Part shown: positions 30,578 to 50,885 of the stretch, piece by piece
Position numbering within the stretch: the stretch's first letter is position 1
Layout: every line of letters begins with the position of its first letter
Source: an uncultured Verrucomicrobiae bacterium
GTDB lineage: Bacteria; Verrucomicrobiota; Verrucomicrobiia; Limisphaerales; Palsa-1400
DNA: 64,000 bases
Direction: 5' to 3'
NCBI GenBank assembly: GCA_963764165.1
Contig: CAVXRD010000003.1
Location: 320,001 to 384,000, forward strand
The notes under the pieces: generated by a model
Databases searched by the model: none
Seen by the model: the letters and a program-made list of their open reading frames with translations, nothing else
Told to the model about the DNA's origin: nothing
Position numbers and translations under genes: made by a program

Positions 30578-30686
30578 GGGCGGAGCGCGGCTGTGTCGAA
30601 GACCAGCCGCAGCAACGTGGAATTGATCGGCGCACTTTGCAATGCGACGCGCTGCGGCTGGTCTTCGACCCAGCCGCGCTCCGCCT
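30578..30686. repeat. REP-like inverted repeat pair
   Basis: ggcggagcgcggctgtgtcgaagaccagccgcagc ... gctgcggctggtcttcgacccagccgcgctccgcc. Confidence 0.88.
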
Positions 30687-30832
30687 GAGGCGTTATTTCG
30701 ACCATTCATCCCTAATCACACCCGGAGCGCGCTCGGCGATGGAAAGCCGTCTCGCTATTCCACCGCTGGGAGCAAAGAACCAGCCTTTCCCGTCTAACTC
30801 TGTTGTCTGCGCGTTTACGGAACAATAATAAT

Positions 30833-33800: not shown

Positions 33801-36800
33801 CCACGGCTGCGCTTTTGGCGTTTGGAATCTTTTGTTTGACTCAAAGTTCGGCTTTTGGCGACAGCGCTAATCCGGATTCGGTAACGCAAACAGTGCGGGT
33901 TGAGGATCGATTTGCATTGGGCTCAGCCAAAATTCACTGGCAGGCCGAGAAAGGACAATCGCTTTCCCTTGTGTCGAGCAATGCGGTTTTGACTGCGGCG
34001 CATTTTCCTGTTGAAGCGCTGGAGTTGGTTTCCGCAACCGGCAAGGATCGCATTGTTGCCAAAAAGACCGGCGCCTGGGATATCGATGTTCGCTACGAAG
34101 CCGCGCTGACGACGAATCAGGGGCAGATTGGCTTTAGCCTGCCGACGCCTAGCGGATTGGTAAATCGCTTGGAACTGACGGTGGCCGGACGTGATGTCGA
34201 TGCGGCGTCGCCTGATTCGGTTTCCACGCAGTGCGAATATGTGAGCAGCAACACGACCGCGCGATTCGTTCTAAAACCCGGTCCGGCGTGGATCGGATGG
34301 AAGCCCCGCAGCCGCGACGCGGCCAAGGAAAAAGCCGTGTTCTACGCCGAGATTTCGCCCGTTTACGTTCCGAGCGCCGGCGTTGTTGAAGGCATTCACG
34401 CGGTGGTGATTCGCCCCGCCCAAGGCGAAGTGGGCGAACTTCTTCTGCGCGTTCCCGCAGGCGCGACCGTGACGGATGTCTCGGGCGCGGGCGAAAGCAA
34501 GACAGTTGTGTCGGTCTGGCGCTTTGATCCGGACACGCGCCAATTGCGCGTCAACTTGAACCCGCCGCAATCGCGCTCCTTCACGCTTTCGGTGAGAACC
34601 CGCCAAGCGGTCGGGCCATTCCCAATCGAACAATCCATCGGGCTTCTGGGCGTTGAAAACGCCGCCAGCCAAATCGGCCTGGCGGGACTGGCGACGGGAA
34701 GCGACGTCCAGCTCGATTCCGCCACTGCGCCCGCATTTTCGCCGATTAATCTCGAAGATTTTCCCAGCGATGCCGTCGCGGCGCTGCAACCGGAGATTCC
34801 CGGCTTAACGCTCCGCCGCGCCTTCCGCTATACCAACAGCGCAGCCGCCATTTCCATTAAAGCCTCTGCGGTTGAGCCTGATGTGCGGGTGGAAACACAA
34901 GACACATTGTCACTCGGCGAAGATCGAACGGTGCTGGCGGATAACGTGACCTTGGACATTCGCCGGGCCGGAATTTTCGATTGGAGCTTCGCGCTTCCCG
35001 CCGGTTTTGAAGTCGAATCCATCAGCGGCGCTTCGCTGAGCCAATGGACGGAATCGAAATCCGGCGCGGATCGAATCATCACGCTGCATTTGCTCGGCAA
35101 GACCACCGGCGCGCAATCGTTCGCGCTGAGTTTGGCGGGCGCGGGCGTCAAGACGGCGCACGGCTGGACCGCGCCGCAAATTGTGATTCGCGAAGCCGCC
35201 AAACAACAGGGAACTTACATGATCGTGCCCGAACAGGGCATGCGCCTGCAAACCACCATCCGCGAAGGCTGCACGCAACTGGATCCGCAAAAGTCTGGCA
35301 TCCGCCAGCGCGGAGTGCTGGCCTTCCGCATTCTGCAAGCGCCGTCCAGGCTTGTTATTGACATCGACCAGGTCGATGCGTGGGTGCAAGTCACCGGCTG
35401 GCAGCACGCCGACATCAGCCAGGCGCAAATCAAGGTCAGCGCCAGCTTCCAATACCAGATTGAAAACACGGGACTGAAATCGTTCCGCCTGCGCCTGCCG
35501 ACGGAAGCGCAAGGCGTCCGCTTCCAAGGCGAACAGGTTGGCGATTTCCTTCAGGAACCCGGCCCGGCGACGAATGGCCTTCAGACGTGGGAAGTGAAAT
35601 TGCGCCGCCGCGTGATGGGGCCATTCCTGCTGCAATTGAATTACGAAATTCCGCTGACCTCGCAAACGGCATCGCTGTCCGTGCGGGGCATCGAAGCGCA
35701 GGACGTGAATTCGCAGCGCGGATTTGTCACGGTGCAATCCGACCCCCGCATTGAAGTGAGCGTGGACGCGGTGCCTGCCGCTTTGCAGCCGGCGGAGTGG
35801 CAAAGCATCCCGCGCGAGTTGAAACGCGATCTCCCCACCGCCGCCGCCAGCCTCGCCTACCGCCTGGTCGAACCTGGATTTCAACTGCCGTTGAAACTTG
35901 TGCGGCACGAAGCGGCGAAATTGCTGCCAGCCAGAGTCAACTATATTGAATTGAGCTCGGCCGTCGCCGATGACGGCGTCATGCTGACCCAGGCCCGGCT
36001 GGAGATTGTGCCGGGCGACAAGCGGCTGCTGAGTTTGAGCCTGCCGCCGACCGCGCGCTTTTGGTTTGCGTTCGTCAACGACAGCGGCGTCTGGCCCTGG
36101 CGCGATTCCACCAACGTGCTCATTCCGCTGGAGCAGCAATCCGCCGGGAACAAGCCGGCCACGGTCGAAATTTATTACAGTTGCCAGGCGGGGTCGGCTT
36201 CGGAAAGCGCGTTGAACATGGATCTCGCCGCGCCGAAATTTGATCTGCCGCTGGAAAACATCACGTGGCATGTCTCGCTCGGGCAAAAGTGGCATGTGCA
36301 GAGCAGCTCGGGAGCGCTGCAATTGGAGCGCGCCGAGACTGAGGCGGCGGCGGACCCCGCGAGCACGCAAGCGTATCTGGCCAACGAAACGAATCTCCGC
36401 AAAGCCCGCACCGCGGAAGCCGAGCAATTTCTCGCGCTCGGAAATAATTCGCTGCAAACCGGCGATCCGCAACAGGCCCGCCGCGCGTTCCAGGCGGCCT
36501 ACGGATTGTCGAGGGACGACGCCGCGTTCAACGAGGACGCGCGGGTGCAATTGCACAACGTCAAATTGCAGGAGGCCCTGATCGGTTTCAACGCGCGGCA
36601 ATCAAGCGTCTCCGGCGACGCTGGAGCGCTGGGCGGAAAATTCCGCGCACTGCGCGGCAATGCGGCGCTCAATTACACGCAGCAGGACGCCAAAGACATT
36701 CTTGACAACAATTCCGCCGACGACAACGCGGCCTTCATGCGCCAATCAGAGAAGCTGGTGCAGCAGCAGGACGCCGCCGTGACAACTCCCGCCGCCATTC

Positions 36801-37009
36801 GCGCGAACATCCCCCAGCAAGGCCAGCGCCTGACCTTTCGCCGCTCGGTGGCGGTGGATTCGTGGGCGAGCCTGAATGTCAGCGTTGAAACGGTGCTGGA
36901 GCGGCATGGTACCATCGCGGGGCGCGCGGTTATTTTGGGAGGCGTGCTCATTTTCTTTGCCATCATGGCCGCGTTCGAATCCGGCCTGCTCCGCCCGGCT
37001 CGCTCGTGA
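30833..37009 (+). CDS. Very large (2058-aa) exported/membrane protein of unknown function, internally duplicated
   Basis: Signal peptide, two similar beta-rich halves separated by a cluster of hydrophobic helices, C-terminal TM helix. Confidence 0.85.
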   Translation: MKTPSIVSIVILLTASIAPLFAHADEKRPGHPLPARLPISLRDFKLTGDLTNDTAAFTLTAIAKVEEAHGGTLEILSGNIALTSFTQDPKMRLRTEGDRYTLVFDKKGEYPVRLQFDAAVAQAGGWNAVAFHVAPGVLQPIALRGMAADSQFRFPGAARLDWKDGQFASVLPEDGSVNLSWKEARRETEGKLFFSAELLEQISVSPGLLRQAALFHFKVMQGELNRVSARLHGAGEITRVQGDQVLSWNIEAIPQSADHRLVIQLNQAQRDQFALQIQAQQPLGAFPQTAEALRLSPELATGFSGSVRVVNEGAVRLEVAASGGMSQISPEQFPESDATRAAFRPGGNQRFAYHFAGGDSALRIQADQILPELSASELLSYHYGESEIDIDAEIELDIREAPLRELLLRVPRGFAVARLNAPSLSDSDYALSGPADSAQTDLRLTFGQPLTGRQLIQLRLERNQGAGETNWSLPRIDVAKAATVRGFAGLAADAGFRLTTDRSQGLTEMAPAFFPGKLPGIQSSFRLTDPNWSAVVKVERLPQTVQASVLHLFSIGEGIAYGSSVINYVISGAPVSSFRIELSNDCANVEFTGKDIRGWQTNAGGYVVQLHTPVSGAYTLLATYERPFKAQGDQVEFVGARPLDAQSEQGYTLVTSAYQFQVKPEEVSPALLPLEPAEVPPEYRLFTDAPLLAAYRYGSRPFNLRLSLSPLAQGDSLKQVVDRALLETHISKEGQAVTSIRYFIKNRGRPDFRLTVPKSAQLWSALVNGVAATPVVDGPASLIPLPQSADPNAVLELDLKMAAAAAQPELVHIEAPVTDAPVMLAEWKLEPDTGRRLVYQTGSVSPDGGTVDVSGFAQLARLWHGKSWADSRAIQPSNITLLAPVQQAGSPLKITVQNVPVKEAATAWIGWIWPAGIAVVAWIAGLLSGAVMKFLCRAAAWTLLAWAALRTPNGAGAFIWVLVACAAIHGLWPLSRRLRHWKPLAPGAPATAALLAFGIFCLTQSSAFGDSANPDSVTQTVRVEDRFALGSAKIHWQAEKGQSLSLVSSNAVLTAAHFPVEALELVSATGKDRIVAKKTGAWDIDVRYEAALTTNQGQIGFSLPTPSGLVNRLELTVAGRDVDAASPDSVSTQCEYVSSNTTARFVLKPGPAWIGWKPRSRDAAKEKAVFYAEISPVYVPSAGVVEGIHAVVIRPAQGEVGELLLRVPAGATVTDVSGAGESKTVVSVWRFDPDTRQLRVNLNPPQSRSFTLSVRTRQAVGPFPIEQSIGLLGVENAASQIGLAGLATGSDVQLDSATAPAFSPINLEDFPSDAVAALQPEIPGLTLRRAFRYTNSAAAISIKASAVEPDVRVETQDTLSLGEDRTVLADNVTLDIRRAGIFDWSFALPAGFEVESISGASLSQWTESKSGADRIITLHLLGKTTGAQSFALSLAGAGVKTAHGWTAPQIVIREAAKQQGTYMIVPEQGMRLQTTIREGCTQLDPQKSGIRQRGVLAFRILQAPSRLVIDIDQVDAWVQVTGWQHADISQAQIKVSASFQYQIENTGLKSFRLRLPTEAQGVRFQGEQVGDFLQEPGPATNGLQTWEVKLRRRVMGPFLLQLNYEIPLTSQTASLSVRGIEAQDVNSQRGFVTVQSDPRIEVSVDAVPAALQPAEWQSIPRELKRDLPTAAASLAYRLVEPGFQLPLKLVRHEAAKLLPARVNYIELSSAVADDGVMLTQARLEIVPGDKRLLSLSLPPTARFWFAFVNDSGVWPWRDSTNVLIPLEQQSAGNKPATVEIYYSCQAGSASESALNMDLAAPKFDLPLENITWHVSLGQKWHVQSSSGALQLERAETEAAADPASTQAYLANETNLRKARTAEAEQFLALGNNSLQTGDPQQARRAFQAAYGLSRDDAAFNEDARVQLHNVKLQEALIGFNARQSSVSGDAGALGGKFRALRGNAALNYTQQDAKDILDNNSADDNAAFMRQSEKLVQQQDAAVTTPAAIRANIPQQGQRLTFRRSVAVDSWASLNVSVETVLERHGTIAGRAVILGGVLIFFAIMAAFESGLLRPARS

Positions 37010-37111: not shown

Positions 37112-38110
37112 TTACACCTGCGGTGGAGTCGTTGGCGCCGCAGTATCTTCGGCGGCCTTATACTGCATCCGCGTCAAGGTGGAAAAGGCGTTCGGATGCC
37201 GGAGGTCGGCGTTGAATTCCGCGACGTGGTGGCGCTGCTTGGGATTGAAACCCCGATCAAGAATATACTTTGTCAATTCCTTGAACTCAGGCGTTTGTTT
37301 GACATCCGTCGACATAGCGTGAGGCTCGAGCGGAATATCCATGACAATCCTTGAACCCTCCTGCTGATCGGGCGGAAGGTCTGAAGTCCAGAATTGGGAT
37401 AAGACCACGACGCGCGTGCCAAGAAAAACCGCTTCCTCCAAATTGTGGGTCACGAAAATGACGGTCTTCTTGTAGCGCTCCCACAATTTCAGGATGAAGA
37501 TCTGCAAGTCTTCGCGCGTGCTGGCGTCCAGCGCGCCGTAGGATTCGTCCATGCAGATCAAGTCCGGCATTCCGAACAGGTCAATCGTAATGAGCGTCTG
37601 CGCGATGGCAACGCGCTGGCGCATGCCGCCGGATAATTCGGTCGGGTACTTGTCGCCGGCGTCGGAAAGGCGCATGTCGTCCAGATATTTGCGCGCCATG
37701 TCCCGCGCCTGCTTCCACCAGCTTCGCGAAAAGCGCTGGAGAATGCCCGCTTGAAACTCAAGGCCGAGAAGAATATTCCTCAGCACTGTCAAATGCGGGG
37801 CAATTCCGTAATTTTGAAAGACCACCCCCCGCGTGCGATCGGGAAATGACGGCAATTTCCCCAGCACCTCGAAGTGCTCAGCCCGCTGCACAATTTCCTG
37901 GCCAGTGAACAGTTTAAGCAAAGTCGATTTGCCGCAGCCGGAAGGCCCGACGAGCGAAACAAATTCGCCGCGGCTGACAATCAAATCGATATCGTTGAGA
38001 ACGGTTTTCACACGGCCATTGGCCGCGTCGTAATAGCCATGATAGGCATCCTCAAGATGGATGGCTTCGTTCCCTGTCAGCGCCGGTTTTGGTCTCGGAA
38101 TAAAATCCAT
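37112..38110 (-). CDS. ABC transporter ATP-binding protein (NitT/TauT type)
   Basis: GPSGCGKST, VFQ, LSGGMRQR, MDESYGALD, FVTH. Confidence 0.95.
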   Translation of the reverse strand: MDFIPRPKPALTGNEAIHLEDAYHGYYDAANGRVKTVLNDIDLIVSRGEFVSLVGPSGCGKSTLLKLFTGQEIVQRAEHFEVLGKLPSFPDRTRGVVFQNYGIAPHLTVLRNILLGLEFQAGILQRFSRSWWKQARDMARKYLDDMRLSDAGDKYPTELSGGMRQRVAIAQTLITIDLFGMPDLICMDESYGALDASTREDLQIFILKLWERYKKTVIFVTHNLEEAVFLGTRVVVLSQFWTSDLPPDQQEGSRIVMDIPLEPHAMSTDVKQTPEFKELTKYILDRGFNPKQRHHVAEFNADLRHPNAFSTLTRMQYKAAEDTAAPTTPPQV

Positions 38111-38114
38111 GATC

Positions 38115-38963
38115 TTAATCCTCGTTTGTGGTGTACCACCTGAACCACGGGAGCTTCAGCACGCCCTGCAAAATCAGATCGCTGGCATAGGCAAGCAAAG
38201 AAATGTAAATGACGTAAGGAATGATCAAGGCCATGTTCATGTATCGCTGCTGGAGATAGATTCGATAACCCAATCCTTCCGTGGCGGCGACGGCCTCCGC
38301 CGCAATGACGAAAATCCACGCGGCTCCGAGAGACACGCGAATCAAGTCGATCAAACGCGGCAGCATTTGCGGAGCGATTATCTTGTAGAGAACCTGGAAC
38401 TGGGTCGCTCCCAGCGTGAGCGCCTTGACGGTCAATTCATGCGGCATGCGCTCCGTCAGACCGGCGATGGTCCGCATCATGGGAATGCCAATGCCGAAGG
38501 CAATCAGGAACACTTTGGAATTCTCCCCCACTCCGAGCGCGACCAGCACGATCACCAAAACCGCGAGAGGATTGACGTTGGATAATCCAGTCACCAATGG
38601 CGACAGCAAAGCGCGAAATCCCGGAAACATTCCCATGGCGATTCCAATAAAATAACTCGCCACCGCGGCGATGCCGATGCCAATTCCGAGACGCTTCAAG
38701 CTGGCCTTGGTGTCTTCGACGAAGAGATTTTTGCCCGAGCGCCGATCTGGCACCGTGATAATGGTCTTCATTGCGTTGTACATTTGACGCACGGAAGGCA
38801 TCAGCTTGTCATCGGGATTTTTCAAGGCCCGGGCGTGGGAAACAAACATGTAGAGCCCGAGCAGCGCGGCCACCGGCAGCAGCCCAAGAAATCGCCCGAA
38901 GACCATGCCGGGCCGGGCGTGCAGGCCCCAAAACAGAGGAATTCTATGTTTCCGTTGTGTCAT
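38115..38963 (-). CDS. ABC transporter permease (NitT/TauT type)
   Basis: Multiple TM helices, KALTLGAT (EAA-like loop), GAAWIFVIAAEAVAATEGLGYRI. Confidence 0.93.
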   Translation of the reverse strand: MTQRKHRIPLFWGLHARPGMVFGRFLGLLPVAALLGLYMFVSHARALKNPDDKLMPSVRQMYNAMKTIITVPDRRSGKNLFVEDTKASLKRLGIGIGIAAVASYFIGIAMGMFPGFRALLSPLVTGLSNVNPLAVLVIVLVALGVGENSKVFLIAFGIGIPMMRTIAGLTERMPHELTVKALTLGATQFQVLYKIIAPQMLPRLIDLIRVSLGAAWIFVIAAEAVAATEGLGYRIYLQQRYMNMALIIPYVIYISLLAYASDLILQGVLKLPWFRWYTTNED

Positions 38964-39047
38964 GCTGCGTCGTCTGAATTCATGGACTGCAAATCGGTAC
39001 ACGTTGCGGGGCGGTGGTCAATTCGCATAAGAATCACGAGCAAACCC

Positions 39048-39118
39048 CGGTAGGGCGAGGCTCCTGCCGAGCCATTCCCCGGCACGGAAGGCGGCTCGGC
39101 AGGAGCCTCGCCCTACCG
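39048..39118. repeat. GTAG-type REP doublet inside the operon
   Basis: cggtagggcgaggctcctgccgagcc ... ggctcggcaggagcctcgccctaccg, perfect 26-bp arms. Confidence 0.92.
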
Positions 39119-39141
39119 AGCCTTATCAAGTTCGCTAGCGC

Positions 39142-40221
39142 CTACAGTTTTCCGCCAGCCGCAGCTTTTACGAATTCGCTGGTGTAATGGATTTTCACGT
39201 TTTTGGGATCGCCGATTATTTTTCCGCCCGGCAATTGAATGCCAATGAAATCAGGCGATTGCGCCCCCTGCCCCAAAAGTCCGTGGTCGAAACAGAATTT
39301 GGTGACTGTTTTCGCTGTGCTCTCAAGGGCCGGGCTTTCGATGAAAGCGATTCCGTCTTGCGGGGTGTAGAACATCTTCGTGGTTCGCAATTGCGCTTTG
39401 AATTCAGGCACTGTGCCGCCAGCGAACTTGGCCATGGCCTCAATCGCTTGATCGGCCTGCTTGCCCTGCCCTGACATGACGGCCATCGCTTCATACCACG
39501 CGCCGACCAGAGCCTTCTTGACAGCGGCGGGCGCATCGCGGCGCACAACCATCAGATCCTGGATTTCGCCGGGTATTTTTGAGGAGTCAAATATAAGTGT
39601 CGCTTTCGGGAGATTGCGCACCTGCATGAGAATGGGATTCCACGTCACGGTGGCTCCCTTATCTCCAGCGGTCGCGAAGGTGGCGCCGATGTTGGCGTCG
39701 GAAGTATTCACTTCGGTGACGTCGCCATCGTGCAACCCTCCGGCCTTCAGCGCCTGCGAGAGCAGATAGGACGAGACGGAATCTTTGACAATCAGGACCT
39801 GGCGGCCTTTGACGTCCTTGATGGTTTTGCCGTTGAAGAGGACCAAACCGTCATTGCCGTCCGAGTAATCTCCCACCACGAGCACATCGGAATCCACGCC
39901 GCCGGTGGCCGGCATATCGAGCGTATCCATGATGGTCATCGCGCAGCCCGCAGCCGCGCCGGACGTGTACTGATTGATGCTGGTGACGTAGTCGTTGATC
40001 AAAACGATTTCAACTTTGACCTTATACTTGTCAGCCCATTTCTTCATGATCCCGGAGTCGGCGATGTATTGCCATGGCTCCCATCCGGTGTAATGCGACC
40101 AGAGATAGCGATAGGGTTTGTCTGAATCATCTTCCCGCGCGACGGCCTTGAACGGAAGCAAAGTCCCGCATAACACGGCGGCAAGCGCGATTCCTGTTTT
40201 CCACATTTTCATATTTTGCAT
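39142..40221 (-). CDS. ABC transporter substrate-binding protein resembling the urea-carboxylase-associated (TIGR03427-like) family
   Basis: Signal peptide; WSHYTGWEPW..SGIMKKWADKY..INDYVTSINQYT, DYSDGNDG, SVSSYLL, VTWNP, IPGEIQDL. Confidence 0.88.
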   Translation of the reverse strand: MQNMKMWKTGIALAAVLCGTLLPFKAVAREDDSDKPYRYLWSHYTGWEPWQYIADSGIMKKWADKYKVKVEIVLINDYVTSINQYTSGAAAGCAMTIMDTLDMPATGGVDSDVLVVGDYSDGNDGLVLFNGKTIKDVKGRQVLIVKDSVSSYLLSQALKAGGLHDGDVTEVNTSDANIGATFATAGDKGATVTWNPILMQVRNLPKATLIFDSSKIPGEIQDLMVVRRDAPAAVKKALVGAWYEAMAVMSGQGKQADQAIEAMAKFAGGTVPEFKAQLRTTKMFYTPQDGIAFIESPALESTAKTVTKFCFDHGLLGQGAQSPDFIGIQLPGGKIIGDPKNVKIHYTSEFVKAAAGGKL

Positions 40222-40240
40222 TTCCTTTTTTGTATTCGAA

Positions 40241-41530
40241 TTAAGTGTTTTTCTTGCCTGTGGCAGAGAGATCCTGATCGAGATTCAGTGTCACGGCGGC
40301 TTTGTTGCCGCGTTCCATTCTGGCGATGGCTTCTTCGCCCATCGCGGTAAGATTATTCCGTTCTTTAATGGCGGCGCCCATTTGCTCAATGGCACGAGTG
40401 CGGAATGTATCCACATCATCCAGCGCCTTGATGGCGTCCTTCATGGCTTGCGCCAAACCGGCATCGGAAAGCTGGGCGGACGCCGCTTGTTTGTGAATTT
40501 CAATGCCCTGGGTGGCGAGAAGCTTCGCGTTGAAGGCAATCGTCCGATTGCCCACGTCGTCGAGGGCTTGAATCTTGGTCAACACTATCTTCTGGTTGGC
40601 CAGCGCCTGCGCGGCGGTGATGCCGATGAGCAAGGCGGGATACGTCACGTTTTTGCAACGGATGACGCCGCGGATGAGTTCCTTGTTGTTCTGAATGAGC
40701 ACCTCAAACATCAGCACTCCCTGCTGGTTCACCACCAATTGCTGCTGCAAATCGGTGATGCGCTGGCGCAGGCGATAAATCAGCTTCGTGTTGATATACT
40801 TTGCCTGGTCGCTTTGCGGCTCGAACTTCGCCACTTCGGCCGCCAGCTTCTCGTCAATCAACTGGCAGGTCGCGATGTAACGCGTGAGGTCGCGCGTGGC
40901 CTGGCGCATGGTGACTTGCTCGTCGCGCAGCGTGTCGATGTCGCGCTGGAGCTGCTGCTTGCTGAGTTCGACTGAATCGAAAAGCGCTTCGATCACTTTC
41001 CCGGAAGCCTCGAACTTTGTGAAATACTTGTTCAACTTGTGGCCAACGCCGGGAATCATGCTGGCGACTCGTCCCGCCCAGCCGGCTTCGAAGTTAAACC
41101 GGGACGGGTCAATTTCGTCGAACTGGACTTTCAAGTTCGTAAGAGCGTCAGCAATCCCCTGCCCTTCGCCCCCGCCGATCTGGCCGAGTCGCTTGAGCGG
41201 CTGCTTGAGAAGTTCATTGGCGACGGCGGCTTTGCGCTGCTGGATGACGCCGAGATTCTCGACGGAAAGCGCGGCCTGCTCCTGAGCATCTTCGTTTTCG
41301 ACCGGCACCTTCAAGAGTTTGCCGACGAATTCAGTGGCCTGCCGGTCAAGCTCGGGATCCACTTTTTTTTGCACGACCGCCTTGGTGATTTCATCCGGCC
41401 CAAGCAGGCCGAGGTCGTTTTTTATTTTGCCCGGGTCAGCCACCTGTGGCGCTGCTTCCCTAAGGGCGGATTGCTGTTGTCCCAGCATTTCCAGATTCTG
41501 CGTGGGGGCCGCGAGTATTTGTTCTGACAT
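40241..41530 (-). CDS. telA: Toxic anion resistance protein, TelA/KlaA family
   Basis: All-helical; KLNKYFTKFE, LRQRITDLQQQLVV.QQG, IQNNKELIRGV, ALANQKIVL, IHKQA. Confidence 0.88.
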   Translation of the reverse strand: MSEQILAAPTQNLEMLGQQQSALREAAPQVADPGKIKNDLGLLGPDEITKAVVQKKVDPELDRQATEFVGKLLKVPVENEDAQEQAALSVENLGVIQQRKAAVANELLKQPLKRLGQIGGGEGQGIADALTNLKVQFDEIDPSRFNFEAGWAGRVASMIPGVGHKLNKYFTKFEASGKVIEALFDSVELSKQQLQRDIDTLRDEQVTMRQATRDLTRYIATCQLIDEKLAAEVAKFEPQSDQAKYINTKLIYRLRQRITDLQQQLVVNQQGVLMFEVLIQNNKELIRGVIRCKNVTYPALLIGITAAQALANQKIVLTKIQALDDVGNRTIAFNAKLLATQGIEIHKQAASAQLSDAGLAQAMKDAIKALDDVDTFRTRAIEQMGAAIKERNNLTAMGEEAIARMERGNKAAVTLNLDQDLSATGKKNT

Positions 41531-41551
41531 ATATTTTTCCTCTCGTTAGTT

Positions 41552-42415
41552 TTATTTTTTAAGATCCTGTTCCAGCGAAATCGCCGGAGTTTGCCTGCTG
41601 TTTGCCCTGACTATCATTTGATTCAGCAAATCCATGGCTTCGGCCATCATCTCCCGTGGCGTCTGCGAAGCAGACCTGTCTTTCATTCGGACGGCGGCGT
41701 TGCCCGCCTTGTCCATCGTGGCTAGCGCCTCTTCATTCGCCGCCAGAAGCTCTTCGACTTCCTGCGCGGTTTGATCGTAAACGCCAGCCTGGTCCTTCAA
41801 TGCCTTGAGGCTCGTCTCGTCGGCGTGTGTCCGCGCGGGCTTCTGATCCAACGCCGTGACGCGTCCTTGAATTTCCGCGCGATTCATGTCTTTGACATTG
41901 AGAAGCAGCGTGACCACGCGATCGAGATTGTCCAGGCCAGAACGGTAGACTTGCTCCGCCGTTCCCATGACGCGCGAGAAGGTCAATTCGCTTTCCGAAA
42001 GCACTCTGCGGAACACGGCCAGCAGGTTTTGAAATTTTTCTTCGAATTGCTTTACCTGGATTTCTCCCTGCTGGCATCCGAGTTTCTTGAGATCGGCTGA
42101 CAACTCCGCTGACTTTTGCTTTTTTAGCCTTTCAAATTCGTCGTGCATCCTCGCGTAATGTTCCTGCATATAGGCTTCGCCTCTGCCGAGAAAACGGTAG
42201 GCCAGATGAGCCGCCCCCAACACCACCCCGCCCGTGGCAATGGCCACCGTGGCGGGCGCGGAAACAACCGAGAACAAACCCAGTCCGAAAGCCGTCACCG
42301 CGCCGAGCGCCGGAGGCCAGAGAGTCAGCGGATGCTGGATGGTGTCGAGAAAGGCCGTGCGTCGCGCGGCCTTCTCGCTGAAATCCATCTGCGGGCTGCC
42401 TGTGTCAACCTTCAT
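41552..42415 (-). CDS. Membrane-anchored coiled-coil protein, probable XpaC-like TelA partner
   Basis: Two N-terminal TM helices then a long helical region; lies immediately upstream of telA. The XpaC-like label rests mainly on position and topology. Confidence 0.65.
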   Translation of the reverse strand: MKVDTGSPQMDFSEKAARRTAFLDTIQHPLTLWPPALGAVTAFGLGLFSVVSAPATVAIATGGVVLGAAHLAYRFLGRGEAYMQEHYARMHDEFERLKKQKSAELSADLKKLGCQQGEIQVKQFEEKFQNLLAVFRRVLSESELTFSRVMGTAEQVYRSGLDNLDRVVTLLLNVKDMNRAEIQGRVTALDQKPARTHADETSLKALKDQAGVYDQTAQEVEELLAANEEALATMDKAGNAAVRMKDRSASQTPREMMAEAMDLLNQMIVRANSRQTPAISLEQDLKK

Positions 42416-42430
42416 GGTGGCTCGTTTAAT

Positions 42431-44092
42431 TTACAACTGCGCTTGCGTGAGCTTTTTCACGCCGCGAACGCTATCGGCGAAATCATGCGTGAAATCACGC
42501 AGCGCCTCCGCGTGGTCCGAGGCAAAACTCTGGCGATAAACGCTTTCAACTCCGGCGATCACATCCTCAGGCCGCACGCCTTCAGTTGGCACGGGCTTTG
42601 AAAGCTCTCGCTCCAACGCCAGCCGTTTAGCTTCTTCCACAATGACCGGAATCATCGCCCCGCTGACAATATTCTCCAGCGTAAAACGGACGGTCGTGTT
42701 CGCGCCCGCCGCTCCTTCGCGCTCGATTTCGTAAATGACACGTTTCGCGGAAAACAGCTCCTCGGCGAAGATGTCTCCCAGCTTTTCGAGCGTCACCGTT
42801 TCCGAAACAGGAACATTCTTCATGTTCTTCAAAAAAATTTCGCGAGCGGCTTTTCGATCTGGACGGCTGATGCGCAATTTCACATCGATGCGGCCCTCCC
42901 GCACGGCGGCATAATCCAAAGACTCCGGCTTGTTGGTCGCCAATATAACCAAAGCGCCCGATTGGCGCACGCCCTGCATTTCCGCGAGGAAGGCGGGAAC
43001 GATTGTGCGCAACACGTCGCTGCTGATGCCGGAATCGCGCTTCGCGAGAATAGATTCGGCCTCGTCCAAAAATATGACCGGACGAATGCCGGTCTTCTCG
43101 AAAAACTTGCGCGCTCGGGCAAAAAGATGCCGGATGGTGGCTTCTGGAACTCCGACATATTTGTCCAAAATCTCGGGCCCGGAAACCAGGATGAAACCCT
43201 GTGATGCTTTTGCTCCTTTGGCGCTGCAGGTTGCGGTAATGGACGTATAGATGGCTTTTCCAAACATGGTCTTGCTGCATCCCGGCGGACCATAAAGCAA
43301 AACGCCCGACGGCGGTTTTTTCCCGAAAAACTTGTAATGCTCCGGATGCAGCATCGGTTTTTCCAAGGCATCCATGAAGCGGTTCTTCGCTTCTTCCTGG
43401 CCGCAAATGTCGTCCCACGAAACTTGAGTGGCCTCGTCAACCGAGAACGAATCATCCTCGAGGCCGAAGTTCCCGACGATCACCGTCGCGCTGGCATCGA
43501 GCACCACTCTGCCGCTGGGTTCGAGTTTGCCGGCGAATTTCCCGGCATAGACTGTCTTCCGGTTGCCTTGAAAATCCACCAATGCCATATCGCCGTCGAG
43601 CGCCTGGGCTACGAACGCAATGCTGCCGGAGGCGGCTCCCTTCTCGACGTCCACCACCGAAAGCGGGTCGCGCGAGAGTTTGAGATGGTCGCCCGGCTCG
43701 ACGGAAAATCCGTCAACCAAAAACTCCAAGAGCTGGCCGCCATAAATGGCAACGGCCAGTTTCTCCAATTCCTCGCCAGCCAATTCCAAATCGCAAGCGC
43801 CATCTTGGATGCCGGGCAAGCCAATCCGATAACGGTTCTTGTAGCCACCCGGAAATAAAACATAAGCCCATCCCGGCTCGTCCTGCTTTGCGCCGATGAC
43901 TTCGCCCGTCCCGCTCGCTTCGGGATTCAAGCCGAAATACTTGCTGTCCTTTCGAACCTTGACCAAGGTCCCCTTGCATCCCAGCCGGTCAGGCGACGGA
44001 AGCGGTTTGCGCGTCAACACTCGGATGACGGTCGCAAGGCCAAGCGGATAAATGGTCTTTGCCGCGCCCAATTCAGATGGAGTTGTTGTCAT
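42431..44092 (-). CDS. ARC/Mpa-like proteasomal-type AAA+ ATPase with atypical N- and C-termini
   Basis: AGGAG RBS before ATG 44092; GVLLYGPPGCSKT, GPEILDKYVG, IFLDEAES..R.SGISSDV..TIVP, ATN..GRIDVKLRISRPD, SGAMI..IV..AK; tandem OB-like region before the AAA module. Confidence 0.88.
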   Translation of the reverse strand: MTTTPSELGAAKTIYPLGLATVIRVLTRKPLPSPDRLGCKGTLVKVRKDSKYFGLNPEASGTGEVIGAKQDEPGWAYVLFPGGYKNRYRIGLPGIQDGACDLELAGEELEKLAVAIYGGQLLEFLVDGFSVEPGDHLKLSRDPLSVVDVEKGAASGSIAFVAQALDGDMALVDFQGNRKTVYAGKFAGKLEPSGRVVLDASATVIVGNFGLEDDSFSVDEATQVSWDDICGQEEAKNRFMDALEKPMLHPEHYKFFGKKPPSGVLLYGPPGCSKTMFGKAIYTSITATCSAKGAKASQGFILVSGPEILDKYVGVPEATIRHLFARARKFFEKTGIRPVIFLDEAESILAKRDSGISSDVLRTIVPAFLAEMQGVRQSGALVILATNKPESLDYAAVREGRIDVKLRISRPDRKAAREIFLKNMKNVPVSETVTLEKLGDIFAEELFSAKRVIYEIEREGAAGANTTVRFTLENIVSGAMIPVIVEEAKRLALERELSKPVPTEGVRPEDVIAGVESVYRQSFASDHAEALRDFTHDFADSVRGVKKLTQAQL

Positions 44093-44108
44093 GGTTTCTC
44101 CTATCCCG

Positions 44109-45698
44109 TCAAAATGTCTCCGAGAGCAGCGATACCTCAACGCGCGGCAAACGATAGGTTTGGTAGGCGCGCTCACTTTCGCCGGGCAGCATTGGCAGCG
44201 GCCTGGTTCCGCCGTAGCCGACCGAACGAATTCGATTTGTGTCAATCGCATATGTGATCGTTAGATATCGAACGACCGCATCGGCGCGTTCCTGCGAGAG
44301 CGCAAGGTTTGCATCAGCGTCGCCGAGAAAAGAGGTGTGGCCTTCGACCAGAATTCGAAATGTCGGATAATGCTTGAGGCGCGAAACCATCGCATCGAGC
44401 TTTTCCTTCTCCGAAACCTCAAGCTCGCCGACCCCGCTTTGAAATAGGATGGGTTCGATATTCAGGCTGCCCACCGAATGCAATTTCGCCCACTGCGCAT
44501 CGGTCAGCGGCTTGAACGGTTTGCTCAGGCCATCGCCGCCTTCCATCGCCTTTGACGCAGTGCCTGTCAGCGCGGAAAAACCGTTCCGGATGCCGGTATT
44601 GTAGATTTGCTGAACGAAACTGCTGTTCACGATTCGGTATGGATCTTTGTCGGGTAGCGGATCCGATTTGAAATCCCCGCTCTGAACCAAAATCTCAACA
44701 GTTGACTGAATCGTGTCAATCAACCCCTGCTCCGCCATCTGGCCCGGCCCGCTGATTCCAAACCACTCCTGGCAATTCTCGCTCAGATTGGCCCAAGCCA
44801 CGCCGTTCAACATCTTCTTCACCGAGTCGGCGGGCAGTTTCAGTTCGGAGTGAATGTCCTTCTCAAGCTCGTCGGAATTGTCCGCGTAGAATTTCAGCGT
44901 CCGAAAGTAGGTTTTCAAAAACAAATCCACTTTTTCAGGATTCTTAAGCGCGAATTGGCGGTTGACCACGAGAATGTCCACAATCAGACGGCTGGTGCTT
45001 TCTGTTCCCAGGATTTTGACCACGCCCGGAATTTCAAGAGCCTTCGATACGTTGGGTTCCCAGAGAATCGCGACTGAGACCTTTTTCTCCTGCAGAAACT
45101 TGAGCGCTTCCTGCGAATCCTTTGTCTCGATTCGCTTGTTGGCGCTGATCTCCTTCAATCCTGGAACATTGAAATGCGAACTGATGGATTTCAAAAGATG
45201 CTGGCTGGGCGAAGCCGGAGTGTAAGCGATCTTCGGCATTGTGTGGCTGTCGAAGGTCTTGAACGACTCAAGGCTGGAAACAACATTGCTGTAGGCGACC
45301 ATCGCATCGCCGCCTTTGGATTCATCCACGATGGCCACAATTGTTCCGGGAAAATCAACCGGCGCGGCGTTGAGGATGTAAGAATCGACCGTTACCACGG
45401 CAAAATCCAAATCGCCATCCCGCAGCTTCTTCATCCGCGCGGGATAATCGCCGCCGTCGTTGGAAATATCGAGGCGATAGCCCTCGTTGCGCATCGCCTT
45501 TTTCATGCGGCCAGAACTGAGCGGGTAATATCCAATCCAGTCGTCAATCGCGACGGTTACTTTCCCTTTCAGATCCTTGTCATCGCTGGTTTGGATCTGC
45601 ATGCGGTTCTTCAAGACCGGGATCATCTTCTTGGCCACGTACAAGCCGGGGAGAATGAGCACCAGAAACAGAAGAACGAGAATGGGCGTTTTTTTCAT
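44109..45698 (-). CDS. Solute-binding (NMT1/TauA-like) domain fused to a C-terminal OmpA-like domain, N-terminal membrane anchor
   Basis: DDWIGYYP, DESKGGDA, WEPNVS, IVDILV; then ILF..VEGHTS..NLALSQERADAV..GYGG..RVEV. Confidence 0.87.
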   Translation of the reverse strand: MKKTPILVLLFLVLILPGLYVAKKMIPVLKNRMQIQTSDDKDLKGKVTVAIDDWIGYYPLSSGRMKKAMRNEGYRLDISNDGGDYPARMKKLRDGDLDFAVVTVDSYILNAAPVDFPGTIVAIVDESKGGDAMVAYSNVVSSLESFKTFDSHTMPKIAYTPASPSQHLLKSISSHFNVPGLKEISANKRIETKDSQEALKFLQEKKVSVAILWEPNVSKALEIPGVVKILGTESTSRLIVDILVVNRQFALKNPEKVDLFLKTYFRTLKFYADNSDELEKDIHSELKLPADSVKKMLNGVAWANLSENCQEWFGISGPGQMAEQGLIDTIQSTVEILVQSGDFKSDPLPDKDPYRIVNSSFVQQIYNTGIRNGFSALTGTASKAMEGGDGLSKPFKPLTDAQWAKLHSVGSLNIEPILFQSGVGELEVSEKEKLDAMVSRLKHYPTFRILVEGHTSFLGDADANLALSQERADAVVRYLTITYAIDTNRIRSVGYGGTRPLPMLPGESERAYQTYRLPRVEVSLLSETF

Positions 45699-45716
45699 GT
45701 TGATCCTCGCGTCAGA

Positions 45717-46628
45717 TCAGCCGGCAATCTCCATATCAAAGCCAAGAATGCTTCGATGGCCATAATCAGGCGGGACTGCCGGATTTTCACGAATTTGAGT
45801 GACGTAGTGCCAGAGGCCCTTGTCCGATTGAAAAATCCCCTCCCCTTCCGCCAAGGTGCGGCGGACGTATTCCGTCTTCTTGTCTGGACCGTAAACGATG
45901 CTTTCTCCCCCGAGAATTCCCGCGCGCTCGATCACGAGGGCGGACACAATATAATCGGCGCCATCCTGGTGAATTCCCTCGGGCGCGTTATCGCCGCCGG
46001 AAAGAATGTCTGCAAAGATGAACATTTGATGGACGCTCATGCGCAGCTTTGCGCAACTGGGGTGGCGCTCGCGAACCATCTCGGCAAAGCATCCCATCAA
46101 ATGGCGCACTTGTGGATGCTCAGCGACCATCGCTTCCATTTCGTGAAAGACGCGCACAAGGCGTCGCGGATCATTCGCCCCGACGTTTTGTTGGTATTGC
46201 GCCGCCGGAACGCGCTCAAAACTCCACTTGCCCGCCGCCCGCATCAGATTGAAGCGAGCCACGGAGCGCTTGCGCCGACCGGTCATGCCGATACGGTCCA
46301 GTTCATTGCGATCCGTGTCGTCTAGTTGTTTTACTAGATCGTAGATGGCCGCAAGGTCTTCCTTGTTTGAATAATAATTGCGCAGAAATTCGCTGAGCCG
46401 ATCCGATTGCTCAGGAAATCGCTTTTTGAGAAGTTCTACTTTCGCCCGTTTCGCATCGTAAGGATCGAGATGCAATACGGAAAAAGTCGGGCGCATGTCG
46501 CACAAAAAGCTTTCCCGATCCACTCCAAACGTCTCGAGCGAGAAAACCCGCACCGGCGGAATTTCCGTCCCGAATTTTCGGGATAGCTCGGTTTCGTTGA
46601 TGATGAATTTGTTCACGGTGGCTTTCAA
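45717..46628 (-). CDS. 2-oxoglutarate/Fe(II)-dependent dioxygenase family protein
   Basis: APEGIHQDGADY (HxD), LWHYVT (distal His), HRSILGFD (2OG-binding Arg). TTG start overlaps the upstream stop. Confidence 0.87.
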   Translation of the reverse strand: MKATVNKFIINETELSRKFGTEIPPVRVFSLETFGVDRESFLCDMRPTFSVLHLDPYDAKRAKVELLKKRFPEQSDRLSEFLRNYYSNKEDLAAIYDLVKQLDDTDRNELDRIGMTGRRKRSVARFNLMRAAGKWSFERVPAAQYQQNVGANDPRRLVRVFHEMEAMVAEHPQVRHLMGCFAEMVRERHPSCAKLRMSVHQMFIFADILSGGDNAPEGIHQDGADYIVSALVIERAGILGGESIVYGPDKKTEYVRRTLAEGEGIFQSDKGLWHYVTQIRENPAVPPDYGHRSILGFDMEIAG

Positions 46629-47401
46629 TGCGCGTCCGGTTTGGCGCTGAACTCCGATTCAGCCAGGACGCTTTCAAGCCCCTGGTTGAGCTCCTGAAGG
46701 CTGGTGGCGTCGTGGTAAAGCGTCAGCCCGGGCCGGTTTAAGCTGTGGCCTTCGCCGATGCAGAAGCCAATCGTGCTGATCAACACCGGCGAATCGGAGA
46801 CGATCTTATTGACAATCTCGCGAGGATCGTCTCCCCGGTCAGCCTCGCCATCGGTCACAATCACCAGATAATATTCGCCGTAACCAAGCTGGCGCCTGGC
46901 CTGTTTTTGCAGAAGCGAATAGCCCAGCTTCACAGCCCTGCCCAGCGGCGTGTTGCTGTCCGAACGAACCGCCTGCAACGCTTGATTGAAAGCAGCGCGA
47001 TTAAGCGAAAGCGGCGCGCGTTCCGTCACACCCGCGCTGTCAAAGGCGCACAGCCCCAAGTTGTCGTCCGGCCTGATTTTGGTGGCGAAGGAGGCAATGG
47101 CCTGCTTGGCCGCCACGATCTTTGACAAATTCCCGGAACAATGGGACTCCGACATGGAGCCGGATCCGTCAAGCACAATCAGGAAGTTGCGGCGAGTCAG
47201 CAGCGCATCCAGGTCTTTCGCGGGGTCGCTTCCGTACCACGAGCGATTGTTGAAACCGCGAACCTCTTTCGGATCATCCAATACGGTCGTGACAATTTGC
47301 GGCCGCGGCGCGGACGGCGATCGATGGGGCCGCTGATTTCTCATGGAAATGTAGACCGCGACCAGAATGAAAACGAAAATGAGCCTTGCGAAAAATTTCA
47401 T
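46625..47401 (-). CDS. Membrane-anchored vWA domain protein
   Basis: N-terminal TM helix; LDGSGSM MIDAS, NTPLG, VTDGEA. Start overlaps the upstream stop (ATGA). Confidence 0.9.
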   Translation of the reverse strand: MKFFARLIFVFILVAVYISMRNQRPHRSPSAPRPQIVTTVLDDPKEVRGFNNRSWYGSDPAKDLDALLTRRNFLIVLDGSGSMSESHCSGNLSKIVAAKQAIASFATKIRPDDNLGLCAFDSAGVTERAPLSLNRAAFNQALQAVRSDSNTPLGRAVKLGYSLLQKQARRQLGYGEYYLVIVTDGEADRGDDPREIVNKIVSDSPVLISTIGFCIGEGHSLNRPGLTLYHDATSLQELNQGLESVLAESEFSAKPDAH

Positions 47402-49140
47402 TTGGCACCTCCATCCGGGGTCCACACTGATTCCGCCTCAACGTTGACGATGCGAAGTTCGCATCGCATGTTCGAATAAGCCGCCTCTTTGCTGGTGGGC
47501 CGGATTGGCTCGCCATCCGATGTCGTGCCGGTCTTGGGATCACTTATGCCGTGGCCCATCGTCGTGAACTGCGACGGGTCCAGCGCCACGCCTTTGGATT
47601 TGGCATAGTTGACAATCGCTTCCCGCACTTGCACCGCGCGATTCAGCGATGTGTTGTTGGCGGATTGCTTGATGCGCGAAAGAACCAGGGTGGGCTGCCC
47701 CTTGCTCTTGGCATCGCAGTATCCTGTCGGATCCGCGTAGCCTTCCACCGTGATGATCGCGCCGGCATAGATGGCAGCGCGCTTGATTACCTCGTCGAAT
47801 TGCGTGGCATAGGCCTCAGGGGCAAAGGTCGCCTGGTTCGGCTTGAAAAAGACCTCGAATTCGAAGAGTTGATTGTCCTTGAGAGTGCCTTGCTCGGAAC
47901 GCTGCGCCATGACTTTCGCCACTTCGCCGCTCTGAAATTTTGGAACCTCGCTGGCTACGATCTGCGTCAAACCCGATTTCAACGCATCGTAATCCAATCC
48001 CGCGGTATCCACCGCGACCTTCGATCCAATAAGCCCCAGGCCCACCAGCCCGCCCTGAATCTCATCCTGCAGGACAGCGAAACGGCGCGGAAATGTTGGG
48101 CTGGTGAACGTGTTGACGTTTCCAACAAAGCCGACGTATTCGCAATCCCCATAAAGGCCTTTCGCGTCCGCGACAGCCTGCGGGCTGTCAAGCAGAATGG
48201 TGGCAGCGGCGGTCATCAATTTGTTGTAATCCGCTTTTTGCGTCACGCTGTCGCGCATGAGCACCGCCAGTTTTTCCTGCGCCATGAGCAGGGCGTGCGC
48301 GAAGTTGATCACTTCAGCCTTGTGGGCCTGGAAGTAATCGCTGCGAACCGCGTAGACGTCGACAATAATGCGGCTGGCCGTTTTTGTTGACATCAAAATA
48401 TGCGCGCCTTTCACTGATTTTTCCGCGCCCGTTCCAACGCCGCTGTTGCTGGTGATCTCGGCCGCGTCGGGGCTGATCATGAACGCCGCGTCCACTGATG
48501 GGTCGGTGCGCATCGCGCCAGCCGGCGTGTCGTCCGTTCCGGTGAGATCCTTGACCCACTTAATCTTGACGTCGGTCAGCGCGATATTGGCGTCCGCCAG
48601 CACGCGGGTCAAATAATCCACATGCGGGCCGTAAGCCTGCAAAACGATGGTCTTTCCTTTGAGATCAGCCGGGGTCTTGATGCTGGATTTGACCACCAGC
48701 ACGTCGCCTCCAACCGAATAGGTAAGCTGCCCGATAACCACCGGTTTCACGCGCGGATCCTGCAGGGCTTCGATGGCCTGGTTCAACATGCCAAGCGTGC
48801 ATCGAAGATAGGCGGAATCACCGCGAATATAGGCCGCGATTTGCTTGGTGAAGTCATCCTCACGCTTGAGGCTGAACTTCAACCCTTGCGCGTCGAAGAC
48901 GCTGCCACTGGCCGTGTTCACCGCGCTGCCGTTGGCCAGGATGGTGGCAATGTCCCCGCCCCACGTAATGATGGGAAGCTGCATCGCGCCGCCTTCGCGC
49001 ACCGGCACGACCCCCTGCTTGATGACCTTCGCGAGCGGAGGCGAGTCGATGTATTTTACAGTTGCCGCCAGAGCCGAGAAGGCAGCCAAGCTGGGGAAGA
49101 TCACCGCAATCGCCAAGCTTGTCAGGGATTTTGTTTTCAT
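47398..49140 (-). CDS. Exported solute-binding-like domain fused to a divergent OmpA-like domain
   Basis: Signal peptide; ITWGGD, YSVGGD, DLKGKTI, IVDVYAVRSD; C-terminal VFF..VEGYAD..SLNRA..GHG..NMRCE. Confidence 0.85.
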   Translation of the reverse strand: MKTKSLTSLAIAVIFPSLAAFSALAATVKYIDSPPLAKVIKQGVVPVREGGAMQLPIITWGGDIATILANGSAVNTASGSVFDAQGLKFSLKREDDFTKQIAAYIRGDSAYLRCTLGMLNQAIEALQDPRVKPVVIGQLTYSVGGDVLVVKSSIKTPADLKGKTIVLQAYGPHVDYLTRVLADANIALTDVKIKWVKDLTGTDDTPAGAMRTDPSVDAAFMISPDAAEITSNSGVGTGAEKSVKGAHILMSTKTASRIIVDVYAVRSDYFQAHKAEVINFAHALLMAQEKLAVLMRDSVTQKADYNKLMTAAATILLDSPQAVADAKGLYGDCEYVGFVGNVNTFTSPTFPRRFAVLQDEIQGGLVGLGLIGSKVAVDTAGLDYDALKSGLTQIVASEVPKFQSGEVAKVMAQRSEQGTLKDNQLFEFEVFFKPNQATFAPEAYATQFDEVIKRAAIYAGAIITVEGYADPTGYCDAKSKGQPTLVLSRIKQSANNTSLNRAVQVREAIVNYAKSKGVALDPSQFTTMGHGISDPKTGTTSDGEPIRPTSKEAAYSNMRCELRIVNVEAESVWTPDGGAK

Positions 49141-50329: not shown

Positions 50330-50850
50330 GGGTTCCCCAAGATGCCTGCCAAAGCCGCGCGCGGCGATGGGGCCTTTTCCCAGTTTTGACGCGGATACCT
50401 TTCATTTAGCCTACGGTGATGGCCCTATTGGCATTCCGACTGGGTTGAGGACAAGGTGTGCTAATGCCACGCGTCTCAAAATAATCATGACAAGCGCGCC
50501 GCCATAAACCCATTATGTCCAAACACGCTATTATCGGCCTTGATATTGGGGGAACCAAAACTTTTGCGGTGCTCTTCGATGACAAATTCGCGGTGGTCGA
50601 CAAGCGCCGGTTTAAAACTGAGCCAGGCAGCGGCGACCGGGTTTTTGAGAGACGGCTCTCGCGGGCAATCGCGGAATTGGTGGAAACAGCGGCGGCGCGG
50701 AAAATGCGGGTCGGCGCCGCGGGAATTGGCTGCTCTGGCAGCGTTGATTTTGATTCGACCGAATTGCAGATTTCCCCTCACATCCCGTTCCTCAAAAATT
50801 TCAATCTGGCTCAAAAAATGCAGAAGTGGACTAGGGCCTGTTAACACTAA

Positions 50851-50879
50851 TTGACATTTTATAGGCGACAAGGCAAAAT
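50851..50879 (+). promoter_or_regulatory. Sigma70-type promoter for the transposase
   Basis: TTGACA-17 nt-CAAAAT directly inside the left TIR, ending 6 nt before the GTG start. Confidence 0.6.
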
Positions 50880-50885
50880 GGCTGG

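Follow-up and report, generated by a model that had tools for sequence, protein, structure and literature searches.

For decades, TelA-family proteins have been associated with phenotypes involving tellurite, nisin and daptomycin, with a mechanism still missing. Here we consider a ten-gene cluster (g1 to g10; Table 1) that contains a telA gene (g7) and lies on a 64,000-nucleotide stretch from an uncultured Verrucomicrobiae bacterium (contig CAVXRD010000003.1, positions 320,001 to 384,000; ‘the window’ throughout). The closest described systems are the PspA operons of Ravi et al. 2024 (PMC11237479), which also carry TM-Snf7, double AAA+, ATP-binding cassette (ABC) and PBPB-OmpA genes (example OGG56892.1) and for which those authors propose ATP-dependent membrane remodelling tied to transport. 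As in those operons, the window combines a coiled-coil membrane protein, a membrane-anchored partner, an AAA+ ATPase, an ABC ATPase, a permease and an OmpA-fused binding protein, but TelA stands in the place of PspA, a vWA protein and two OmpA fusions are present, and the ATPase is ARC-derived rather than of the double-AAA type. The operon is a variant of a kind already noted computationally, of which Ravi et al. describe the PspA version; neither ‘TelA’ nor ‘vWA’ occurs in the accessible portions of their main text and supplement.

Other described systems match parts of the cluster. The xpaC-telA (yaaN) pair of Bacillota likewise has a membrane-anchored helical partner ahead of TelA and is linked to envelope stress and lipid organisation (PMC6811118, PMC12791056): in Enterococcus, lipid domains shift when xpaC is lost, provided that telA is intact (PMC6811118), and for Listeria the mechanism is stated as unknown (PMC12791056). 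In the window, by contrast, the partner g6 is not demonstrably PF10112, and both genes belong to a larger module, eight genes in all, with periplasmic and ABC components. TelA neighbourhoods of the Ter system share the combination of TelA and vWA, proposed to act as a sub-membrane barrier, as well as carriage by jumbo phages (PMC7824862), but no TerB, TerC, TerD or nucleotide-signal genes were seen among the neighbours scanned here. The ARC/Mpa ATPases (TIGR03689) share with g5 a double-OB interdomain, an AAA module and a pore loop; g5, however, reaches half the cut-off score, is missing the coiled coil, carries a MIB/HERC2-like insert and has a neighbourhood free of pup, pafA and proteasome genes. 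Finally, g8-g10 resemble Synechocystis GimABC and the TIGR03427 uca-linked importers as a NitT/TauT-type trio with aromatic and acidic site residues (PMC12704784), whereas g8 falls into a separate sister clade, has His for Ile at position 43, and has neither a riboswitch nor, anywhere in its genome, DUF1989.

Taken as a whole, the cluster comprises a conserved, mobile eight-gene envelope module and two accessory genes, and we favour, with moderate confidence, the reading that it is a likely PspA/ESCRT-III-like membrane-stress system in which the ATPase is predicted to recycle a TelA scaffold. What is new is the Patescibacteria-type ATPase with its predicted MIB/HERC2-like reader, the likely direction of its transfer, the swap between TelA and a PspA-like protein in one slot, and the putative guanidinium-type site. 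TelA neighbourhoods of the Ter system were reportedly drawn by Anantharaman et al. in 2012 and may already include part of the operon. The initial annotation knew of no description of the combination; the skeleton around the PspA slot is already in Ravi et al. 2024 (PMC11237479), while for the TelA-OmpA-vWA-ABC set none was found in the literature searched, whose coverage left out subscription papers, Anantharaman et al. 2012 included.

An eight-gene core with a guanidine-type importer

Alignment of TelA led to at least 486 genome loci, the best 80 of which were fetched (kin among them are not independent; handles beginning with L denote these and the other loci discussed below). The genes g1, g2, g4, g6 and g7 occur together in 37 of the 80, and in 23 of these 37 core loci g8-g10 also lie within the fetched DNA, at times moved or inverted. 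Eight genes make up the core: besides telA, these are a vWA gene, a gene for a membrane coiled-coil protein, two for binding proteins anchored in the wall, and the trio of an ABC importer of the guanidine type. By record title, this core is carried by Thermodesulfobacteriota, Pseudomonadota, Elusimicrobiota, Spirochaetota, Nitrospinota, Nitrospirota, Bacillota, Bdellovibrionota and Verrucomicrobiota and, since gene order is kept across many phyla, the cluster is far beyond chance. Of the trans-envelope system originally proposed for this locus, it is the conserved and mobile module of binding proteins, vWA, membrane partner, TelA and importer that stands; the set of ten does not. The ARC-like ATPase (g5) and the dioxygenase (g3), both counted as parts of that system, were each found in none of the 37 distant core loci in a search of telA neighbourhoods, so that the ten-gene set is one lineage’s variant; a ‘ten-gene conserved system’ is ruled out, two of its genes being accessories.

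All eight core genes are present on a 545-kb viral contig, with tRNAs close by (L119:5081-15463), and on pAM7 and pSEA2, the two Vibrio plasmids read among six plasmid records matching g4. On large Vibrio plasmids (L188:6527-15311, L189:5541-14316) the core sits close to an RctB-like replication gene, with the ABC ATPase shifted to the front, and a 136-kb viral contig (L120:9923-10957) carries TelA only. Among individual loci, one has a 2dG-II riboswitch pointing away from g1 (L017:4732-4803) and another two tandem vWA genes (L074:5790-7437). TelA genes of Bdellovibrionota (L008-L015, L021, L026, L032 and kin) occur without the core, beside SPFH-SHOCT genes and, in one group, DUF4178 and spermidine synthase genes too, a setting also associated with PspA.

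Annotation of each gene with Pfam and NCBIfam upheld all of the earlier labels other than ‘XpaC-like’ for g6. A hydrophobic stretch occupies residues 10-28 of g1, which matches PF00691 (E 2e-5), TIGR01728 (E 8e-8) and, weakly, the NMT1/SsuA family PF09084 (E 2e-3), and whose OmpA-region motifs are conserved across 46 homologues; g4 matches PF00691 (56 bits), TIGR01728 (E 6e-12) and TIGR03427 (E 3e-5) and, as g1 does, shows weak NMT1/SsuA similarity. The vWA protein g2 exceeds the cut-off for PF13519/PF00092, and its homologues retain the DxSxS and TDG motifs of the metal-ion-dependent adhesion site (MIDAS) in 51/51 cases, many of them with a lipobox.

The solute-binding protein g8 passes TIGR03427 (434.8 bits against 333.9). 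Its residues W47, W50, D124, W194 and D222 are spaced 3/74/70/28, against 3/73/70/28 in GimA (a comparison of residue numbers, not of the GimA sequence), for which a docked guanidinium site of W59, W62, D135, F205 and D233 and a dissociation constant of 97 nM are given (PMC12704784). This predicted site is kept across the 37 operon copies (W50 in 33/37, the other four residues in 37/37), and for the two Asp residues the invariance extends to distant members of the family (22/22). The g8 proteins of the 37 copies form the sister group to importers with guanidine-I riboswitches upstream in 6/9 loci; a search of this genome and of five TelA loci turned up no such riboswitch, and DUF1989 was found neither in this genome nor in three of four other carriers, the GdmH route not having been searched. 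A ‘urea or guanidine catabolic operon’ was considered and ruled out, pathway genes not being found.

The dioxygenase g3 scores 97.9 bits against PF10014, with H220-x-D222...H274 and R292 present; members of this family are reported to hydroxylate free amino acids (PMC3684760). In the ten close loci where both g2 and g4 were seen (L089-L091, L093, L096-L098, L170, L171 and L173, a set in which some may represent a single lineage), all ten have the ATPase and four have the dioxygenase, which is dispensable; a further copy, divergently oriented, occurs in L110. Other extras, counted within 2.5 kb of the 37 distant core loci, include a RaSEA-like radical SAM gene (Cx4Cx2C; TIGR01210 under cut-off) near ten and an unnamed HDxxH protein near five. 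The RaSEA-like family lies before or after both operon types, TelA-bearing and sister (L012, L018, L023, L048, L050, L054, L056, L067, L073, L087, L115, L192), and a HDxxHxxLGRG protein without Pfam match, presumably Coq4-like, stands at the operon end in L045, L049, L060, L070, L076, L113, L174 and L175, twice directly after an AAA+ gene.

TelA, its partner g6 and the PspA slot

The assignment of g7 to the TelA family is secure (PF05816, 172 bits against a cut-off of 30), and its model consists of long helices at weak confidence (predicted local distance difference test score, pLDDT, 61). ClyA and YaxB were considered as fold relatives, with Z 9.4 and 8.8, and rejected as indistinguishable from chance. 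Directly upstream of telA, g6 encodes a membrane-anchored helical protein that is a constant partner across core loci and belongs to a family of 533 representatives at E<=1e-30. Its earlier designation as XpaC-like is not supported: g6 matched no Pfam family, PF10112 included, the 25 families listed (of 74) for 58 g6 homologues did not include PF10112 either, and hhalign against one true XpaC returned a probability of 7%, aligning just the hydrophobic N-terminus; we keep the term as an analogy only. In the ESM Atlas the nearest named cluster is Rv2743c/PF25587 at 0.88, a lead only, and a PDB search with g6 gave nothing at E<0.03.

A more informative comparison comes from three sister operons (L190-L192; Table 1), one of them on LR756511.1, the best phage match to g4, which share with the window six genes of the core and also have a homologue of g6 (hhalign 94.9%, E 5e-8; hidden Markov model E 4e-10 and 5e-12). 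In TelA’s slot they carry a 275-aa coiled-coil gene, the product of which has no profile similarity to TelA, and in L191 and L192 a 610-aa AAA+ protein with one Walker A comes next, accompanied in L192 by a RaSEA-like gene as well. These sister operons correspond to the PspA operon type of Ravi et al. (PMC11237479) and, together with the operons of that paper, they are the main ground on which we read TelA and g6 as a probable functional counterpart of the PspA system. The L190 copy, on its 595-kb phage, adjoins chaperone-like genes.

The ATPase g5 and its route into the operon

The best match of g5 is TIGR03689, at 256.6 bits against a cut-off of 504.75, which the host’s own ARC (418) misses too, so that the cut-off is strict outside Actinomycetota. 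This second protein is encoded separately, on another contig, where it adjoins a Pup-ligase-family gene (proteasome subunits lie elsewhere), and g5 is 29% identical to it. The view of g5 as a usual proteasome partner did not survive: it lies below the cut-off, has no coiled coil and shows no linkage to pup, pafA or the proteasome, and a ‘second proteasomal ARC’ is ruled out with coil and linkage both missing. Walker A (GPPGCSKT), Walker B (DE343-344) and the pore loop are all present. The C-terminus reads LTQAQL and not GQYL, which we take to be the proteasome-docking motif of ARC/Mpa; its absence says little, because four ARCs of the same phylum are without it as well.

Residues 1-215 of g5 were modelled at pLDDT 92.2 and contain an Mpa-type double-OB interdomain (Foldseek E 9e-6; Z 12.8, root-mean-square deviation (rmsd) 2.5, 118 aligned). 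The N-terminal Pup-binding coiled coil is absent from both alignment and model, the first OB strand starting at residue 18 with no helix ahead. In its model, a predicted SH3-like barrel at around residues 38-105 is inserted in OB1 behind its first strand. Foldseek places the HECTD1 domain 3dkm (E 4e-3, TM 0.70 by target, 28% identity) right behind the ARC/Mpa entries, followed closely by Mind bomb 1 and 2dk3, and VIA-align further matched the barrel to 2dk3 (Z 7.2, rmsd 6.1, 80 aligned) and Mib1 4xi6 (Z 6.4). With barrels of the PWWP, Tudor and KOW types at Z 6.2-6.5, its family rank within the fold is only moderately resolved; we predict a MIB/HERC2-like, peptide-binding domain, of a kind known from eukaryotic ubiquitin ligases. 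The Pfam family MIB_HERC2 (PF06701) reaches 13.4 bits on g5 itself, under the cut-off of 33.5, and E<=0.05 in 15 of 64 homologues (best E 1.1e-4). Of the 120 best homologues, 80 match a profile built from the insert, partly by construction, and a PDB sequence search with this profile gave chance-level matches only; the ESM Atlas returned no usable match to the insert. Many deeper relatives have coil and insert together, which places the loss of the coil in the window’s subclade. No paper on this ATPase family was found in the literature searched, subscription papers being outside its coverage. Patescibacteria-labelled proteins P0168-P0287 form a diversified ARC-like family, with or without the coiled coil and the MIB/HERC2-like insert.

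Several lines of evidence bear on where this operon copy came from. Its homologues at 71-81% identity are labelled Verrucomicrobiae, and the named g5 homologues outside this close clade are all Patescibacteria (nine labels; most homologues are unlabelled). In an 18-row g5 tree rooted on four ARCs, five host-family sequences are nested among Patescibacteria, the monophyly of which is rejected (approximately unbiased test, p-AU 0.0009, a test selected after a quick g5 tree had been seen). L105 has the same operon, its ATPase in the same position, and both its g5 and its g7 are identical in sequence to proteins labelled Patescibacteria; the window clade joins L105 and L103 in the TelA, g8 and g4 trees (FastTree support 100, 97 and 92), from which the other Verrucomicrobiota carriers, L060 and L070, fall apart. 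The labels come from metagenome bins, so single ones may be wrong; together they are consistent. From these trees and identities we consider that the operon copy was probably transferred from Patescibacteria, the recipient being, again probably, one Verrucomicrobiota family. Transfer was not recent, because composition gives no foreign mark (GC content at third codon positions of 0.61-0.72 against a genome median of 0.67). Prepilin-type genes (PF07963) lie next to the ATPase at L104:2942-3343 and L105:7588-7959.

The ATPase is not the only AAA+ protein found at the core. L110 and L115 each have, between g2 and g4 but on the other strand, a different ARC-like gene, one that bears the coil; its product in L115 is identical to a Ca. 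Sungbacteria protein. ARC-like ATPases entered the operon twice, at two positions and from two subclades (window with L103-L105; L110 with L115). Unrelated AAA+ ATPases flank 10/37 distant core loci within 2.5 kb, seven with a SpoVK/CbbX/EccA-type gene and three with a second, presumably Ycf46-like type, of which the 7-Mb host genome has no copy and one full-length copy, respectively. This recurrence suggests an interchangeable remodeller slot and, taken with the two entries of ARC-like ATPases, makes a link between the core and AAA+ remodelling plausible; it is a tendency and not a rule, and kin loci are not independent.

In the window itself all ten minus-strand open reading frames were recovered in the order first described, and the junctions (-4, -4, 18, 16, 15, 21, 19, 178 and 4 nt from g1 to g10) are as noted, the 178-nt g8-g9 gap depending on a permease ATG taken at 38963. 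The palindrome in that gap has look-alikes at about 85 sites genome-wide. A promoter scan (eight promoter-like sites, 5.6 expected) and a terminator scan were uninformative, and an Rfam scan of the window gave zero matches. Elsewhere in the window, a 1132-aa YfbK-like vWA protein and a 2068-aa protein without Pfam or NCBIfam match (26991-37009) both converge on the operon’s 3' end, and, from translations, a ROK-family sugar kinase-like gene (50515-52341) appears split into halves (50515-50844 and 51643-52341) by a two-ORF transposase-like element (50886-51643).

Table 1. Genes and features of the cluster (window coordinates) and the sister operons (locus coordinates)
Feature	Position	Strand	Length	Description	Status
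g1	47398..49140	-	580 aa	Signal peptide, NitT/TauT-type solute-binding domain, OmpA-like peptidoglycan-binding domain	Core
g2	46625..47401	-	258 aa	Membrane-anchored vWA protein, MIDAS intact	Core
g3	45717..46628	-	303 aa	PF10014 2OG-Fe(II) dioxygenase; TTG start	Variable accessory
g4	44109..45698	-	529 aa	N-terminal membrane anchor, solute-binding domain, OmpA-like domain	Core
g5	42431..44092	-	553 aa	ARC/Mpa-related AAA+ ATPase, Patescibacteria-type family	Lineage-specific accessory
g6	41552..42415	-	287 aa	Unnamed family; N-terminal hydrophobic hairpin, long helical region	Core
g7	40241..41530	-	429 aa	TelA/YaaN/KlaA-family all-helical protein	Core
g8	39142..40221	-	359 aa	TIGR03427 solute-binding protein
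REP-like palindrome	39048..39118	.		26-bp perfect arms (39048-39073/39093-39118), 19-nt loop
g9	38115..38963	-		ABC permease (TauC/NtrB-like); PF00528, six hydrophobic segments
g10	37112..38110	-		ABC ATPase (NtrC/D, TauB-like); PF00005, TIGR01184
Sister operon L190	6162-14724			LR756511.1, 595-kb phage; g1-g2-g4, ABC trio, g6 homologue
Sister operon L191	64-12392			Genome; g1-g2-g4, ABC trio, g6 homologue
Sister operon L192	1716-13671			Genome; g1-g2-g4, ABC trio, g6 homologue

A working model and its alternatives

Bringing these observations together, we propose a model for how the module might operate. Beyond the inner membrane, the products of g1, g4 and g2 would make up a metal-dependent receptor layer tethered to peptidoglycan, whilst g8-g10 would import a small guanidinium-like cation. 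Because neither a catabolic pathway nor a riboswitch was found, this cation may serve as a signal or as cargo. We suggest that g6 is the membrane anchor that brings TelA, the predicted inner-membrane scaffold, to the stressed membrane, and that an AAA+ ATPase then resets the assembly; in the window this would be the ARC-derived g5, disassembling and recycling the TelA scaffold after recognising its client via the MIB/HERC2-like barrel, not via Pup. The dioxygenase may be an optional small-molecule modifier, as the RaSEA-type radical SAM enzyme may be in other lineages, and the operon copy, ATPase included, would have passed from Patescibacteria into one Verrucomicrobiota family.

A number of observations weigh against this model. 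The surroundings of 27/37 core loci are free of AAA+ genes, and in six of the ten AAA+-flanked loci the gene lies on the opposite strand. Searches with the TelA fold returned nothing decisive (best Z 10.9, inside the helical background; PspA and ESCRT-III absent among the matches listed), and in the sister slot the full-length PspA_IM30 (PF04012) matches are weak and under cut-off in L191 and L192 (E 0.003 and 0.03) and missing from L190, with NCBIfam giving generic coiled-coil matches only. In the window’s g5 clade a Ser replaces Gly in Walker A, and next to the ATPase the Patescibacteria-linked L103-L105 have insertions of unrelated genes, some prepilin-type and some unknown, by which token this spot accepts passengers. 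It is possible, if rather doubtful, that only the core is an envelope module and that ATPase and dioxygenase are themselves passengers, a general Patescibacteria quality-control unfoldase having landed in the donor’s operon and travelled along. The 0/37 count for each gene, the commonness of the g5 family among Patescibacteria-labelled proteins, the prepilin-type inserts of L104 and L105 in the same spot and the lack of the dioxygenase in 6/10 close relatives would all fit; however, g5 is intact, tightly spaced and kept at 81-86% identity in 10/10 close relatives despite the host’s own ARC, and passengers would hardly account for three unrelated AAA+ types recurring at the core, or for the independent entry of a second ARC-like subclade.

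The mobility of the module also invites another explanation. Its presence, complete, on large plasmids and giant phages, its patchy spread (TelA in 1/401 phylum genomes and 6/401 order genomes searched, and none of the five window genes flanking the operon beside nine close loci) and the proposal of Iyer et al. (PMC7824862) that jumbo-phage TelA/Ter genes act against superinfection could point to an exclusion or defence device, in which wall-anchored receptors and vWA sense phage, conjugation or epibiont contact, and TelA and g6 alter or seal the membrane. We consider this improbable: no recurring nuclease, toxin or defence-island context was seen among the neighbours scanned, and a complete high-affinity-type importer would be unexpected in a defence system. 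That same importer, with g8 above the TIGR03427 cut-off, its predicted GimA site kept and guanidine-I riboswitches at 6/9 loci of its sister clade, might instead argue for scavenging of guanidine or a related amidine, concentrated by the wall-tethered binding proteins and released or modified by accessory enzymes such as the RaSEA-like protein found at 10/37 loci. This, too, we hold to be decidedly improbable, given that the riboswitch is absent from the genome and five TelA loci, and DUF1989 from four of five carriers, that the two Asp residues are just as invariant in distant family members, and that no other part of the module is moved or missing as often as the ABC trio; TelA and g6, moreover, would be left unexplained.

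Returning to the membrane-stress model, we also offer a bolder version of it, which we regard as unlikely as a whole. TelA and g6 might constitute a non-ESCRT-III membrane-remodelling polymer in PspA’s slot, for which Patescibacteria rebuilt a proteasomal ATPase as the Vps4 equivalent, dropping the Pup coil and using the MIB/HERC2-like barrel as substrate reader; the whole machine would then have passed from a Patescibacteria epibiont to Verrucomicrobiota, marking candidate hosts of Paceibacteria.

Nested transfers with Patescibacteria as donor and free-living bacteria as recipient are reported less often than the reverse, and the one proposed here hints at a host pairing so far unknown. The ATPase itself shows that the ARC-like family kept by Patescibacteria is diversified and has a predicted MIB/HERC2-like domain. 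For TelA, the swap with a PspA-like protein in one slot and the recurrent recruitment of AAA+ ATPases together provide a testable model, for which Desulfosarcina variabilis and the Vibrio plasmids are cultivable carriers of the core.

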